A stretch of 29,349 bases of DNA, taken from a virus (taxonomy: Duplodnaviria; Heunggongvirae; Uroviricota; Caudoviricetes). Positions 21,409-28,800 of the stretch are shown piece by piece. Made by a program: the position numbers and the translations under genes. The DNA lies in the IMG/VR virus record IMGVR_UViG_2671180349_000006, one strand, 5' to 3'. A model generated the notes under the pieces. The model saw only the letters and a program-made list of their open reading frames with translations. It searched no databases and was not told where the DNA came from. The first letter of the stretch is position 1. The number at the start of each line of letters is the position of its first letter.

Positions 21409-21702
21409 ATGAAAAAAATGTTGTTTTCTGCCGCTCTGGCAATGCTTATTACAGGATGTGCTCAACAGACGTTTACTGTTGGAAACAAACCGACAGCAGT
21501 AACACCAAAGGAAACCATCACCCATCATTTCTTCGTTTCGGGAATTGGACAGGAGAAAACTGTTGATGCAGCCAAAATTTGTGGCGGCGCAGAAAATGTT
21601 GTTAAAACAGAAACCCAGCAAACATTCGTAAATGGATTTCTCGGTTTTATTACTTTAGGCATTTATACTCCACTGGAAGCGCGTGTGTATTGCTCACAAT
21701 AA
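21409..21702 (+). CDS. bor: Bor lipoprotein (serum-resistance moron)
   Basis: MKKMLFSAALAMLITGCAQQTFTV... lipobox LITGC; AGGA Shine-Dalgarno; convergent with Rz as in lambda. Start placed at the ATG for MKKM rather than the ORF-track TTG. Confidence 0.9.
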   Translation: MKKMLFSAALAMLITGCAQQTFTVGNKPTAVTPKETITHHFFVSGIGQEKTVDAAKICGGAENVVKTETQQTFVNGFLGFITLGIYTPLEARVYCSQ

Positions 21703-21733: not shown

Positions 21734-22195
21734 CTATCTGCACTGCTCATTAATATACTTCTGGGTTCCTTCCAGTTGTTTTTGCATAGTGATCACCCTC
21801 TCTCTGAGGGTGAAATAATCCCGTTCAGCGGTGTCTGCCAGTCGGGGGCTGGTTGCATTATCCACGCCGGAGGCGGTGGTGGCTTCACGCACTGACTGAC
21901 AGACTGCTTTGATGTGCAACCGACGACGACCAGCGGCAACATCAGCGCGCAGAGTTTCATTTTCAGCTTTCGCATTGGCTAATTCTCTCGAGTACTTTGC
22001 ATCGAGTGCAGCAACATCACGCTGACGCTGCTGCATGTCAGCGATGGTGGCGATCGCCTGCTTCAGCTCACTGACTTTTTTATCACGCTGTTCTTTGTAG
22101 GCGATGGCGTTATCACGGTAATGATTGACCGCCCACGACAGGCAGACGATGATGCAGATAACCAAAGCATAAATAATCGCGGCGACTCTGCTCAC
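21734..22195 (-). CDS. Rz: Rz i-spanin
   Basis: Lambda Rz-like, ...[29 protein letters not shown]...; likely GTG start at 22195 overlapping the endolysin stop (GTGA). Confidence 0.85.
21793..21975 (-). CDS. Rz1: Rz1 o-spanin lipoprotein, embedded in Rz in the +1 frame
   Basis: 60 aa, [24 protein letters not shown]...PPPPPAW...; lipobox and proline-rich core as in lambda Rz1. Confidence 0.85.
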
Positions 22196-22725
22196 TGCTC
22201 TATCCCCCAACAGGCTAATGCGCTTTCCTGGTCACGACGAATAACCTGTCCATAGCAGTTATTTGAACGTATGCGGCAATCGCGCCCACCATCTTTTATC
22301 CACCAGCGAATCGCCTCGCATGCGCCCTTACGATCACCGGCATTCAGCCGCTTATAAAACGTCGACGGGAAACACTTACCGGGGCCAATGTTATAGGGAC
22401 AGAATGACGCTATACCCGCTTTTTGTGGTTCGGTCAGTGGTACTTTAATATTGCGCTCCACCCATGCCAGCGCCTTATCACGCTCAATGGCGTTGACCTG
22501 GTCGCATTTTTCCTTCGACAGTTTCATACCGGGAAAAACGGGTTTTCCATCCACCATCGTGGCACCCCGACAGATGGTCCAGATGCCGGACCCATCGCGG
22601 TATGCCGTTGTGTGGTTACCTTCTTTTTCATCCAGAAACTGGTCGAGAATATCAGGCGCGGGCGCACCGACGGCAATCAGTGCCAGAACGGCAGCCGACA
22701 GGCCGTATCTGATTTTTGCGTTCAT
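22192..22725 (-). CDS. R: SAR endolysin (T4-lysozyme-type, signal-anchor-release)
   Basis: N-terminal weakly hydrophobic SAR segment [17 protein letters not shown] followed by E-x8-D-x5-T catalytic spacing ([16 protein letters not shown]). Confidence 0.85.
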
Positions 22726-22788
22726 GGATATTTATCAGGATTTATCGGTTTCTGCCCACGGACAGGTTTATCTGTTCCGGTCAGTGAC

Positions 22789-23139
22789 TTAAGGTTGTGA
22801 TTCCGGAGGAGTCTTCAGAGAACCAGTAATTCTTCCCGGTAGCTTTCCTTTGTAGGTTATCCATACATTCTGCGCCTCTAAAATTACGGGGCGCTTTTCC
22901 GGCGACTGCTCATCCCCTTCACATAACCCGGCAGCAACATCCAGGAAGACCTGTCTGATGCTCATTCTGGCTGCTGCCTCATAAAACTCCAGCGCGGCAC
23001 CTTCAACACGGTCCAGCGAGATGTCCAGGTCAAAAATTTCACCGTCAAAGCGTTTTTTGTCCCGTAACGCTAAAGTTACCGTAACTTTATTCTCAAAATT
23101 GCGGATCCCTTTCACAATCAGTTCATAGTTTTGAGTCAT
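22789..23139 (-). CDS. Hypothetical soluble acidic protein (116 aa) inserted between holin and endolysin
   Basis: ATG 23139 lies 4 nt after the holin stop with GGGGAGAG upstream; no transmembrane segment; no family I recognise. Confidence 0.6.
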   Translation of the reverse strand: MTQNYELIVKGIRNFENKVTVTLALRDKKRFDGEIFDLDISLDRVEGAALEFYEAAARMSIRQVFLDVAAGLCEGDEQSPEKRPVILEAQNVWITYKGKLPGRITGSLKTPPESQP

Positions 23140-23143
23140 TGAA

Positions 23144-23359
23144 TTACTCTCCCCGTGCAGCCTTACGACGGTCCTCTCTGATTTTGAAATACAGGTTAGT
23201 CAGATATGTCAGCAGCCCAAACAGCAGACTCCCCAGCACGCCTATTGCCGCCCACTGAGACGGGGAAACCCTGTCCAGCAACTGCAGGAACCAGTAGCCC
23301 GTTCCCACCGCTGACGTGGTGTATGACACACCTGTTGTGATTTTTTCCATCTGGTCCAT
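23144..23359 (-). CDS. S: Pinholin (phage 21 S-like) with dual-start motif
   Basis: [71 protein letters not shown]; two transmembrane segments; Met1 and Met4 form a dual start. The ORF-track start at 23464 is an upstream GTG. Confidence 0.85.
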
Positions 23360-23666
23360 ACCCCGTCTCCCGTTATCCGGAAGCTGACAACAATAAAAAA
23401 GCCACCAGTTAACTACTGATGGCTCTGATAACTCATGCAAGCGTCTCAGACGACCCACTGACACTACCGGTGAGTTTAACGATACCTTCCATTTGACTGG
23501 CTCACTTTTTATGATGATGCCGGTGCATTTATCTCCAGCACCAGACTTTCTATCTCAACGCCATACGTTGCATTTTTGGTAATATCCGTCAGCGTCAGTG
23601 CATTTAGTCCCACTGCCAGACTGTCTTTTATGGCCTGGAATGCCGGGCCAGTACGATGACGTAGTA

Positions 23667-24114: not shown

Positions 24115-24450
24115 ATGAAGTGGATTGTGATTGATACAGTTATCCAGCCATCATGCGGAATATCTTTTTCAGTCATATGGAGTAAAATAAAATTAATAAT
24201 CTGGTATCAATCGGATGCTTTCTTACCTCCTGAAAGTATATTTACACTGACTCACACAGGCATCATGCTCAATAACAAAGTGCTACCTGTAACCATTTAC
24301 AACGTAGTACCATTCAATAAAACATTCTGGAATTTAATCAAAAACAACCAGGAATGCCCTACAAATACAGATAACGTAATGAATGAATGCTTTAATAACC
24401 GTTGCACTCTGCAAATATGTCCTTATGGACTAAAACAACAAAGTCCATAA
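24115..24450 (+). CDS. Hypothetical protein (111 aa) in the AT-rich cargo island, opposite to late transcription
   Basis: ATG 24115 with AAGGAAAG Shine-Dalgarno; very AT-rich upstream region; Cys-rich C-terminus; stop codon lies inside a 10-bp perfect inverted repeat (24421-30 / 24443-52). Confidence 0.5.
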
Positions 24451-24484
24451 GGAGTTTACTCACATCTGACAAAATCAATATAAA

Positions 24485-24506
24485 CAGCCCCTCCGGAGAG
24501 GGGCTG
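24485..24506 (-). terminator. Hairpin with T-rich tail on the minus strand, inside the cargo island
   Basis: Stem CAGCCCCTC/GAGGGGCTG (9 bp), loop CGGA; the minus-strand downstream sequence is TTTATATTGATTTT. Confidence 0.4.
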
Positions 24507-24897
24507 GAGAGTGGCGCTATGTGCCATTGCATGGTGCCGGGTGCCTCCCGGTGAATTCAGTACCAGCACCTGAATCCGCGATTATCCCATATACCTACTC
24601 GCTGATTGCCCCTCCGCACAGGGGGATTCACCATGCCAGTTTCTTTTAACAAACTCCCCGCAAACCAGACAACAGTCAACCGCCTGAATTGTGAAGTATT
24701 TAAAAATTTCTCCCGCTAACTGATACCCGGCTAACAGTCTGGCGTTTTCTTTTTCAGCAACGGGAAAGCAACAACCACCACACCCGCCACCAGCACACCG
24801 TCAGCCAGCACTGACATTATCCGGCTGCTGCAATGCCACTCACAAAAACAGTAAGCAATCACTTTTTACCGTAACAAGTGATAATCCAGATATGTAT

Positions 24898-25364: not shown

Positions 25365-25438
25365 CGCGCTGTACTGGATTCGAACCAGTGACCGATTGCT
25401 TAGAAGGCAATTGCTCTGTCCGGCTGAGCTAACAACGC
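25365..25438 (-). tRNA. tRNA-Arg (anticodon UCU), no encoded CCA
   Basis: Minus-strand cloverleaf: acceptor GCGTTGT/ACAGCGC, D-arm GCTC-AGCCGGACA-GAGC, anticodon stem ATTGC/GCAAT with loop CTTCTAA, T-arm ACTGG-TTCGAAT-CCAGT, discriminator G; the 3' trailer is CTA, not CCA. Confidence 0.8.
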
Positions 25439-25538: not shown

Positions 25539-25614
25539 TGGTGGCCCTTGCTGGATTTGAACCAGCGACCTGGCGATTATGAGTCGCTCGCTCTCACCAC
25601 TGAGCTAAAGGGCC
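25539..25614 (-). tRNA. tRNA with CAU anticodon, ileX/ileZ-like (tRNA-Ile2, lysidine-modified) rather than Met
   Basis: GGCCCTTTAGCTCAGTGGTGAGAGCGAGCGACTCATAATCGCCAGGTCGCTGGTTCAAATCCAGCAAGGGCCACCA; encoded CCA; closely resembles E. coli ileX as remembered. Confidence 0.85.
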
Positions 25615-28456: not shown

Positions 28457-28612
28457 TTACTCCTCAGGTTCGTAAGCTGTGAAGACAGCGACCTCCGTCT
28501 GGCCGGTTCGGATTCGTACCTCGCAGAGGTCTTTCCTCGTTACCAGTGCCGTCACTATGACGGTTAAACAGATGACGATCAGGGCGATTAACATCGCCTT
28601 TTGCTGCTTCAT
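28457..28612 (-). CDS. hok: Hok-family type I toxin (51 aa)
   Basis: Translates to MKQQKAMLIALIVICLTVIVTALVTRKDLCEVRIRTGQTEVAVFTAYEPEE, a canonical Hok/Gef sequence; below the ORF-track size cutoff. Confidence 0.9.
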   Translation of the reverse strand: MKQQKAMLIALIVICLTVIVTALVTRKDLCEVRIRTGQTEVAVFTAYEPEE

Positions 28613-28800
28613 AGCCTGCTTCTCCTTGACCTTTCGGTCCGTAAGAGGCTAATCTCTATGTGTCGCATAGATATGGCCTCAGATTAATGTTAAGCGTCTT
28701 GCAGGACGCGTAATGTTAACTGGGGCTTTTCTCTATCTGCCTTTTGGTGTTCATGCCTGAGACAGATAGCCTCAAGCACCCGCAGTCATTCTACTTAACT
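28613..28800. promoter_or_regulatory. hok leader region expected to carry the mok overlap and antisense sok RNA
   Basis: A short upstream frame (MRHIEISLLRTERSRRSRL) ends by overlapping the hok ATG; inverted repeats at 28731-28769; placement by analogy to hok/sok loci. Confidence 0.35.

Follow-up and report, generated by a model that had tools for sequence, protein, structure and literature searches.

The locus described here raises the question of why a phage should carry an additional gene between its holin and endolysin genes, S and R, which are adjacent in phage 21. The locus lies in IMG/VR record IMGVR_UViG_2671180349_000006, a stretch of 29,349 nucleotides (nt) from a tailed phage (Caudoviricetes) that is called the window in what follows. 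It consists of an open reading frame (ORF) of 116 amino acids (aa) with an ATG start (23139..22789, minus strand), situated between a phage-21-type pinholin gene and a gene for a signal-anchor-release (SAR) endolysin, exactly where the initial annotation had placed it. According to our analysis, the ORF is a ydfR gene, that is, an already catalogued, named gene of unproven function, and in this respect the finding is an ordinary one. Our tentative answer to the question is that ydfR may be accessory cargo expressed late, whose product, by analogy with a homologue from Escherichia coli K-12, would act on RNase E or on RNA and would not belong to the lysis machinery; the mechanism is the weak part of this answer.

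The ORF product matches Pfam family DUF1327 (PF07041) over residues 1 to 112 with 142.4 bits against a cutoff of 25 (E value 5.3e-42), as well as two PHROG families, phrog_406 and phrog_2091, both of unknown function (E ~1e-68), and it is 100% identical to RefSeq protein WP_000193264.1, a "YdfR family protein." The entire 1.4-kb block from holin through the ORF to endolysin is shared at 100% identity with several complete E. coli chromosomes and sits there, according to the Prokaryotic Genome Annotation Pipeline (PGAP) annotation, in an apparently complete lambdoid prophage adjoining ompW. Pairwise ratios of nonsynonymous to synonymous substitution rates (dN/dS), calculated for the N-terminal 72 codons against diverged homologues, range from 0.2 to 0.45, so selection acts on the YdfR protein. 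On these sequence comparisons it is near certain that the ORF is a genuine protein-coding gene of the YdfR/DUF1327 family. Further searches with the window protein were negative: NCBIfam gave no match, Foldseek against the viral models of BFVD returned nothing at E ≤ 0.001, and the family profile found only noise among solved structures (CENP-P, E 0.65).

The initial annotation had recognized no family in the protein and had regarded the insertion as unusual. Neither view can be kept: besides belonging to a named family, the gene has a counterpart in the same arrangement in the K-12 prophage Qin (essQ-ydfR-rrrQ), and DNA related to the ORF was detected in 4,349 of 5,426 complete E. coli genomes (~80%), with up to 10 copies each. 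The same annotation had set its proposal against the prospect that this was a common, already characterised lysis-cassette gene; common and conserved it is, functionally characterised it is not. The family is taxonomically narrow. It forms 319 clusters in a collection of 5.8 billion proteins, nearly all of those with a source name being assigned to Escherichia or Shigella, and only 91 matches were found among 1.84 billion cluster representatives. Within the species-representative genomes, matches are confined to the same two genera, besides two evidently mis-binned contigs of metagenome-assembled genomes (MAGs); among the proteins from the family search, no confirmed locus was obtained for P0193 in the species genomes or for P0169 in IMG/VR. 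The labels "Veillonella parvula MAG," "Bacillota bacterium MAG," and "Enterococcus faecalis" are attached to YdfR loci L100 and L102 and to protein P0068, which are 74 to 95% identical to the E. coli gene; they almost certainly denote mis-binned or contaminating Escherichia phage contigs.

The TAA stop codon of the pinholin gene (23146..23144) is followed by exactly 4 nt (TTCA) and then by the ydfR ATG at 23139, and the Shine-Dalgarno sequence GGGGAGAG is contained in the coding sequence of the holin. The ydfR gene itself ends with TAA at 22791..22789. Upstream of the endolysin ATG, the sequence reads ...AUAAAUCCUGAUAAAUAUCC, and no Shine-Dalgarno sequence was seen when one was looked for in the 63-nt spacer that separates the two genes. 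The RNA fold of this spacer is no better than that of shuffled sequences (z-score 0.18), while the final ~14 nt (CCUGAUAAAUAUCC) of this endolysin leader are kept across all cassette variants in our alignment. The earlier description of the two junctions, namely, a 4-nt gap with a strong ribosome-binding site for the ORF and an endolysin start 63 nt farther on with a poor one, is therefore borne out, the endolysin site being absent altogether, and the placement fits co-expression with the pinholin, as had been supposed, through translational coupling.

The survey of phage-21-type cassettes suggested in the initial annotation was carried out on deposited phage genomes, to which all phage counts given here refer; locus architectures were taken from fetched loci, including those of IMG/VR. 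An S21-type holin is present in 427 phage records and a ydfR homologue in 101 (~24%). Phage VT2-Sakai, which is of the 933W type, has no ydfR; its holin is 97% identical to that of the window and its endolysin belongs to the same family, with the ATG of the latter located 4 nt after the holin stop, behind the same GGGGAGAG (junction GGGGAGAGTAAGCTGATG). Thus, the GGGGAGAG element within the holin end serves the endolysin where ydfR is absent. The cassettes of 933W and VT2-Sakai (S-R-ant-Rz) share with the window the pinholin family, the SAR endolysin family, the Shine-Dalgarno sequence, and the 4-nt junction but differ in having the endolysin in the coupled slot, no DUF1327 gene, and ant inserted between R and Rz. 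Since the same holin and endolysin types occur without ydfR in these phages, ydfR is shown, as far as gene content can tell, to be dispensable for the pairing of an S21-type holin with a SAR endolysin and hence for lysis. Judged from the aligned junctions, it is an insertion between S and R that has captured the coupled start site. In every fetched locus with a holin, ydfR starts 3 to 4 nt past the holin stop and the Shine-Dalgarno sequence is kept too; the same 4-nt junction was found in K-12 Qin, YYZ-2008, mEp460, 2H10, phage 86, Evi, and ~90 IMG/VR loci. We also considered whether ydfR substitutes for a missing dual-start antiholin and rejected this, because the N-terminal type of the holin is uncorrelated with the presence of ydfR: both MKSMDK and M[YD]QMEK types occur with the gene, and M[YD]QMEK occurs also without it. 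Table 1 lists the coordinates of the features discussed.

Table 1. Features of the ydfR locus and lysis cassette in the window, followed by related loci in other records (coordinates of the respective fetched locus)
Feature	Location	Strand	Remarks
ydfR-family gene, 116 aa (DUF1327)	22789..23139	-	Stop codon included
Conserved N-domain, residues 1-73	22921..23139	-	From alignments and AlphaFold2
C-terminal tail, residues 74-116, CEGDEQSPEKRPVILEAQNVWITYKGKLPGRITGSLKTPPESQP	22792..22920	-	Kept within one sub-group of the family
Shine-Dalgarno sequence GGGGAGAG	23147..23154	-	Within the final holin codons, 7 nt 5' of the ydfR ATG; read from sequence
Mosaic breakpoint segment, 51 nt	22753..22803	-	Last 4 codons, stop, and first part of spacer
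ydfR-endolysin spacer, 63 nt	22726..22788	-	AU-rich
S21-type (class II) pinholin gene	23144..23359	-	71 aa; PF04971, E 9e-33
SAR endolysin (RrrQ-type phage lysozyme), 177 aa	22192..22725	-	PF00959; phrog_7 endolysin
Rz (i-spanin)	21734..22210	-	PF03245 (E 5e-50) and PF06085 (E 2.8e-20), reported for the Rz/Rz1 entry; last element of the cassette
Rz1 (o-spanin)	21793..21975	-	Embedded within Rz
Terminator-like hairpin, 12-bp stem followed by T-run (TTTATTGTTG tail)	23398..23426	-	Just 5' of the holin start
Pair of 72-aa DUF1327-N gene and ~98-aa helical protein (phrog_25324)	L015 1501-2040; L006 446-992; L116 2998-3545; L117; L115; L104-L114		
Loci of longer YdfR variants	L010 1501-2373; L012 1501-2631; L013 1501-2218; L014 1501-2803; L011 1501-2186		

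What follows the ydfR start is hypervariable, with at least 12 slot architectures among the fetched loci. The arrangement of the window, 116 aa plus a 63-nt spacer, is found in 68 of the fetched IMG/VR loci. In YYZ-2008 there are 114 aa and a 50-nt spacer, and in K-12 a 103-aa gene overlaps rrrQ. Other versions come with a convergent ORF: 176/183 aa plus 321 nt containing an 86-aa ORF in 2H10 and PhiR12_2, 268 aa plus the 104-aa orf6 in Stx2 phage 86, 263 aa plus a 157-aa ORF in Stx1_499, and 72 aa plus a 98-aa ORF in Evi. In phiSTEC1575-Stx2k, 114 aa and convergent ORFs precede a different lysis set (two holins and an M15 peptidase). In the latter phage (L011 1281-3299), the S21-type holin and ydfR are followed by two holin-family genes and an M15 metallopeptidase gene, not by a SAR lysozyme gene, and the phage appears to carry two holin systems.

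The long-form YdfR (2H10 gp52 and PhiR12_2) is the most instructive comparison. It resembles the window in its organization up to codon 112, in the coupling to the holin, and in the endolysin leader, and it differs in its ~67-aa helical C-terminal extension and in the opposite-strand 86-aa gene (phrog_2572). By blastn, window and 2H10 are 95% identical through codon 112, and the identity resumes 27 nt before the endolysin ATG; between these points, 2H10 has 510 nt (the 67-aa C-terminal extension and the convergent 86-aa ORF) where the window has 51 nt. In the alignment, this swap is a clean cassette boundary. The presence/absence polymorphism with sharp mosaic boundaries between collinear phages is that of a moron, and the GC content of ydfR is slightly under that of its neighbors (0.43 to 0.51 versus 0.52 to 0.56).

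The YdfR protein of the window is a mildly acidic protein of 13 kDa (isoelectric point [pI] 5.23; grand average of hydropathy -0.34). No transmembrane segment was found in it, the highest 19-residue Kyte-Doolittle mean being 1.03, and its earlier description as soluble, acidic, and free of transmembrane segments was correct; we infer that the product is cytoplasmic. Alignments show that residues 1 to 73 are the sole part common to all family members, with Y5, L7, Y53, E54, and A57 as invariant or nearly invariant positions. AlphaFold2, supplied with a diverse alignment, models this N-domain as a three-stranded antiparallel sheet (residues 5-14, 18-27, and 34-43) against one long helix (50-74), with a predicted local distance difference test (pLDDT) score of 92.2. 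The helix-strand-strand-strand-helix topology of a double-stranded RNA-binding domain (PF00035), together with a profile match, was looked for in YdfR and not found. The 43-residue tail of the window allele (…EKRPVILEAQNVWITYKGKLPGRITGSLKTPPESQP) is modeled with low confidence, with pLDDT below 50 for residues 72 to 116. In K-12 and mEp460 (103-104 aa) it is swapped for an unrelated C terminus, in the 176/183-aa forms an extra helical extension is present, the 263- to 287-aa forms carry additional other domains, and the 72- to 76-aa forms consist of the N-domain only. In two DUF1327 proteins, P0073 (196 aa) and P0096 (169 aa), a stretch of the N-domain is repeated in tandem within the chain, and in others read-through has joined YdfR to the holin (P0025 and P0034) or to Rz1 (P0066); these forms are probably frameshift or assembly variants.

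As for its expression, ydfR lies downstream of the holin gene, whose start is preceded by the terminator-like hairpin; the hairpin block CTGGTGGCTTTTTTATT is kept in related S21-type cassettes according to the alignment. Farther 5' of the cassette are the Q antiterminator and two tRNA genes. Pattern scans, the only method applied here, detected neither a sigma-70-like promoter (consensus scan of 23140-23500, minus strand) nor a terminator after ydfR. In the absence of a promoter-like site of its own, and with the terminator-like hairpin upstream, ydfR would be made from the Q-dependent antiterminated late transcript, in step with the pinholin, and we infer that it is expressed only late, together with the holin. 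In agreement with late-only expression, hardly any RNA-seq reads came from ydfR in K-12 cells that had not been induced (PMC13232886). A classical moron, with its own promoter and terminator, was rejected as a description of ydfR, since the scan showed neither element flanking it. The initial annotation had left the choice between a lysis regulator and a moron; the comparative data favor passenger or moron-like cargo over a lysis regulator, although the lack of a promoter-like site excludes a moron in the classical sense.

In the literature, functional work on the YdfR family turned up only in the study of Göpel et al. (RNA Biol 2026; PMC13232886), and searches for DUF1327 and for essQ/rrrQ found nothing functional. 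The protein studied, K-12 YdfR (b1555, UniProt P76160, from the cryptic prophage Qin), is like that of the window in being encoded 4 nt after the essQ stop and upstream of rrrQ and rzpQ/rzoQ, in belonging to the same Pfam and PHROG families, and in its N-domain, which is 80% identical and 95% similar over residues 1 to 74 by BLASTP. It is unlike the window protein in having 103 aa and an unrelated C terminus of 30 residues beyond position 74, and its gene overlaps the rrrQ start (ATGA) instead of being separated from it by the 63-nt spacer. A two-hybrid screen that used RNase G as bait yielded residues 1 to 72 of K-12 YdfR three times, and this fragment gave a stronger interaction with RNase E than with RNase G (PMC13232886). 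Furthermore, when Strep-YdfR was isolated from cells, Rne(1-598)-FLAG came with it, as did a large quantity of nucleic acid that resisted DNase (PMC13232886); this copurification with RNase E and RNA is reported for the K-12 protein only.

On this basis, the explanation that we put forward, without strong commitment to its mechanism, is that ydfR would be optional cargo in the slot between pinholin and SAR endolysin of Escherichia lambdoid phages. The gene would take over the GGGGAGAG-driven start 4 nt after the holin stop, which is the place of the endolysin in cassettes without ydfR, and the late transcript that depends on Q would give rise to its product alongside the pinholin. If the K-12 results can be transferred, the N-domain may bind the catalytic N-terminal half of the host RNase E, RNA, or both, and this binding may modulate RNA decay in late infection, while the variable C-terminal tail would supply an allele-specific function. 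Phage-encoded modulators of RNase E include T4 Srd, T7 gp0.7, and phiKZ Dip, and T4 Srd, too, has the N-terminal half of RNase E as its target. With transfer of the K-12 result, YdfR would resemble these three as a small phage protein contacting RNase E in lytic growth.

A number of observations weigh against an action of YdfR on RNase E or RNA. The link to RNase E is a single study, of a homologue with an unrelated C terminus. Full-length K-12 YdfR was positive in the two-hybrid assay only with Rne(1-597), the copurification was done without nuclease treatment so that bridging by RNA is possible, and a contaminant as the RNA binder could not be excluded by the authors (PMC13232886); the protein for which direct binding that withstands nuclease was shown is YegJ, not YdfR (PMC13232886). 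Overexpression of YdfR altered few transcripts and left growth unaffected (PMC13232886), which counts against the idea that an essential enzyme is strongly and globally inhibited or activated. Finally, the N-domain is acidic (pI 5.0), which is unusual for an RNA binder.

The DUF1327 N-domain is also found far from lysis genes. The homologues most remote from the domain of the window (25 to 39% identity) comprise 72 to 76 aa, stand alone as N-domains, and are encoded outside lysis cassettes: between the tape-measure gene (H) and M (L006), between M and L (L009), and between I and J (L007 and L008). The domain occurs in tail clusters with no holin within 3 kb, and each of the four N-domain genes is followed by a small convergent ORF. 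The presence of the N-domain in tail clusters, far from any holin, marks it as mobile cargo untied to lysis, and this mobility is shown as far as gene order can show it. The S-R slot of Evi encodes a 98-aa convergent protein, which shares 63% identity with its convergent counterpart in L006. A search of IMG/VR with the Evi protein found 14 loci, and in every one of them a DUF1327-N gene lies tail-to-tail with the gene of this protein at a distance of 24 to 33 nt; 11 of the loci are in S-R slots, two are between tail genes I and J (L116 and L117), and one is near a KilA-N antirepressor (L115). For the ~98-aa partner, a dN/dS of 0.07 was obtained, dS being saturated in other pairs, which indicates strong purifying selection.

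The longer YdfR variants (169 to 268 aa) are each accompanied by a different small convergent ORF (86, 104, 157, or 90 aa). These partners belong to phrog_2572, 1853, or 2411 or to no family, and the C terminus of YdfR changes along with the partner. The layout of variants and partners recalls, by analogy, a polymorphic system with a constant head and a variable tail, and a functional pairing of the DUF1327-N gene with its convergent partner is a possibility suggested by this gene order. The convergent partners have no Pfam family and no PADLOC model, and their PHROGs are of unknown function only; the defense models of PADLOC-DB 2.0 gave no match for the window protein, the 183-aa variant, or six convergent partner proteins. 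A deposited "DUF1823" label on one of the partners was not reproduced by Pfam. The window copy of ydfR has no convergent partner.

One rival reading is that YdfR regulates lysis timing: a cytoplasmic protein, stoichiometric with the pinholin, would bind the basic cytoplasmic C-terminal tail of the holin or the membrane-tethered SAR endolysin and delay or sharpen triggering, in analogy to the soluble T4 antiholin RIII. The invariable coupling to the S21-type holin stop with its holin-embedded Shine-Dalgarno sequence would suit such a role, as would the pairing of an acidic YdfR (pI 5.2) with a basic holin (pI 9.2), and the Keio ydfR deletion is among the hits of a screen for envelope leakiness with chlorophenol red-β-D-galactopyranoside (PMC3879167, supplement; cited in PMC13232886). 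This phenotype could, in our view, plausibly be a polar effect of the kan cassette driving the downstream SAR lysozyme gene rrrQ. The same holin N-terminal and endolysin types occur with and without ydfR, which is absent from phages of the 933W/VT2-Sakai type; one ydfR cassette (phiSTEC1575-Stx2k) precedes a different endolysin class; the conserved domain recurs in holin-free tail clusters; and the gene does not co-occur obligatorily with the holin/endolysin pair, as the 101 versus 427 records show. YdfR also has no transmembrane segment, unlike S107, S21-71, LydB, and RI, and no Pfam or PHROG family of a lysis category matches it. It is like T4 RIII and other lysis-cassette regulators in being a small cytoplasmic protein coproduced with the holin, but it has no homology to RIII and another predicted fold, and it is optional in otherwise identical cassettes. 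We consider a regulator of lysis timing improbable. An effect mainly in cis, in which the insertion frees translation of the endolysin from its coupling to the holin, so that R is expressed at a lower or readjusted level, and in which the protein itself has little function, is very improbable in our view. It would account for the loss of the GGGGAGAG site by R in favor of an AU-rich leader without a Shine-Dalgarno sequence, which is kept across the ydfR-containing variants, and K-12 re-creates coupling by the ATGA overlap of ydfR and rrrQ; against it, the dN/dS of the N-domain is well below 1 and the domain is kept to 25 to 35% identity in stand-alone homologues, which argues for selection on the protein, and the spacer has no significant RNA structure.

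A different reading starts from the convergent partners and regards the window copy as what is left, on its own, of a mobile conflict module of two genes. In such a module, the late DUF1327 protein would neutralize or regulate a convergent partner that is probably expressed in the lysogen, as a toxin and its antidote or as defense and anti-defense, and the window copy, having lost the partner, would persist either orphaned or directed at a related target in the host. In its favor, all of the IMG/VR loci with an Evi-type partner carry the convergent DUF1327-N gene, and the same pair occupies the S-R slot in 11 loci and Evi, the I-J junction in L116 and L117, and the junction of the tape-measure gene with M in L006, while in L115 it is found close to an antirepressor. 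The low dN/dS of the partner, the association of other YdfR variants with other convergent ORFs and correspondingly changed C termini, and the fact that the swap between window and 2H10 covers exactly the C-terminal extension and the partner segment point in the same direction. On the other hand, the solo 116-aa and 114-aa forms are by far the commonest and are under purifying selection, which argues that they are not decaying orphans; the partners have no PADLOC or Pfam match and only PHROGs of unknown function; and convergence could reflect two independent cargo genes at one insertion hot spot. From gene order and sequence conservation we regard this origin as somewhat doubtful. It is compatible with an RNase E- or RNA-directed cargo protein, and we rank the latter highest, followed by the derivative of a two-gene module, the regulator of lysis timing, and the effect in cis.

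Several features of the surroundings may be recorded. The pinholin has a dual start (Met1/Met4) at its N terminus MDQMEK..., a longer GTG-started ORF reaches 23464, and PGAP labels the identical DNA "class II holin family protein." For the dual-start sequence (23350-23359, minus strand), the window has MDQMEK, phages of the 933W type have MYQMEK, and phage 21 and K-12 have MKSMDK. In the classical logic of the S21-71 antiholin, the longer product has an extra Lys2. With the MDQMEK allele, the longer product gains no positive charge, and as read from the sequence this logic may be inapplicable. The endolysin has a Gly/Ala-rich, SAR-like segment at its N terminus and is labeled lysozyme/rrrQ in RefSeq on identical DNA. 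A gene for a Bor-family lipoprotein (21409..21702, plus strand) faces the end of the lysis cassette in convergent orientation; the identical RefSeq record names it "increased serum survival lipoprotein Iss." The two tRNA genes downstream of Q (25365-25438 and 25542-25614, minus strand) are tRNA-Arg and tRNA-Ile in that record. An Rfam scan of the whole window found nothing within or adjoining ydfR. It matched the small RNA STnc100 (132 bits; 24476-24665, minus strand), which adjoins a homologue of the IraM anti-adapter (24115-24450, plus strand), and with this STnc100/iraM region, between Q/tRNA and the lysis cassette, the late leader has a second island of cargo. It also matched the sok antitoxin RNA (107 bits; 28610-28781, minus strand), which marks a type I toxin-antitoxin locus of the hokD/sok type in the early region; the identical RefSeq prophage has an IS5 insertion near this locus.

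What remains of interest, beyond the identity of a catalogued gene, is the function of a widespread E. coli prophage gene and the modules formed with convergent partners. YdfR belongs to the "y-ome" and is encoded in most E. coli genomes, frequently by more than one copy, it is translated from the best start site of the lysis cassette, and the only biochemical lead ties it to RNase E, the central enzyme of RNA decay. A broader proposal, which we deem doubtful, is that the DUF1327 N-domain is the constant module of an undescribed family of polymorphic cassettes, mobile and made up of two genes, in the lambdoid phages of enterobacteria. Each would combine a late-strand protein, with the three-strand-plus-helix domain and a variable C terminus, with a small convergent helical protein, be inserted at S/R, H/M, M/L, or I/J, and act as a conflict or regulatory pair; the very common solo ydfR genes, those of the window and K-12 included, would then be partner-less derivatives that keep a host-directed activity. 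If this were true, an effector expressed in the lysogen might, for example, be switched off by its late-expressed DUF1327 partner, possibly through RNase E.

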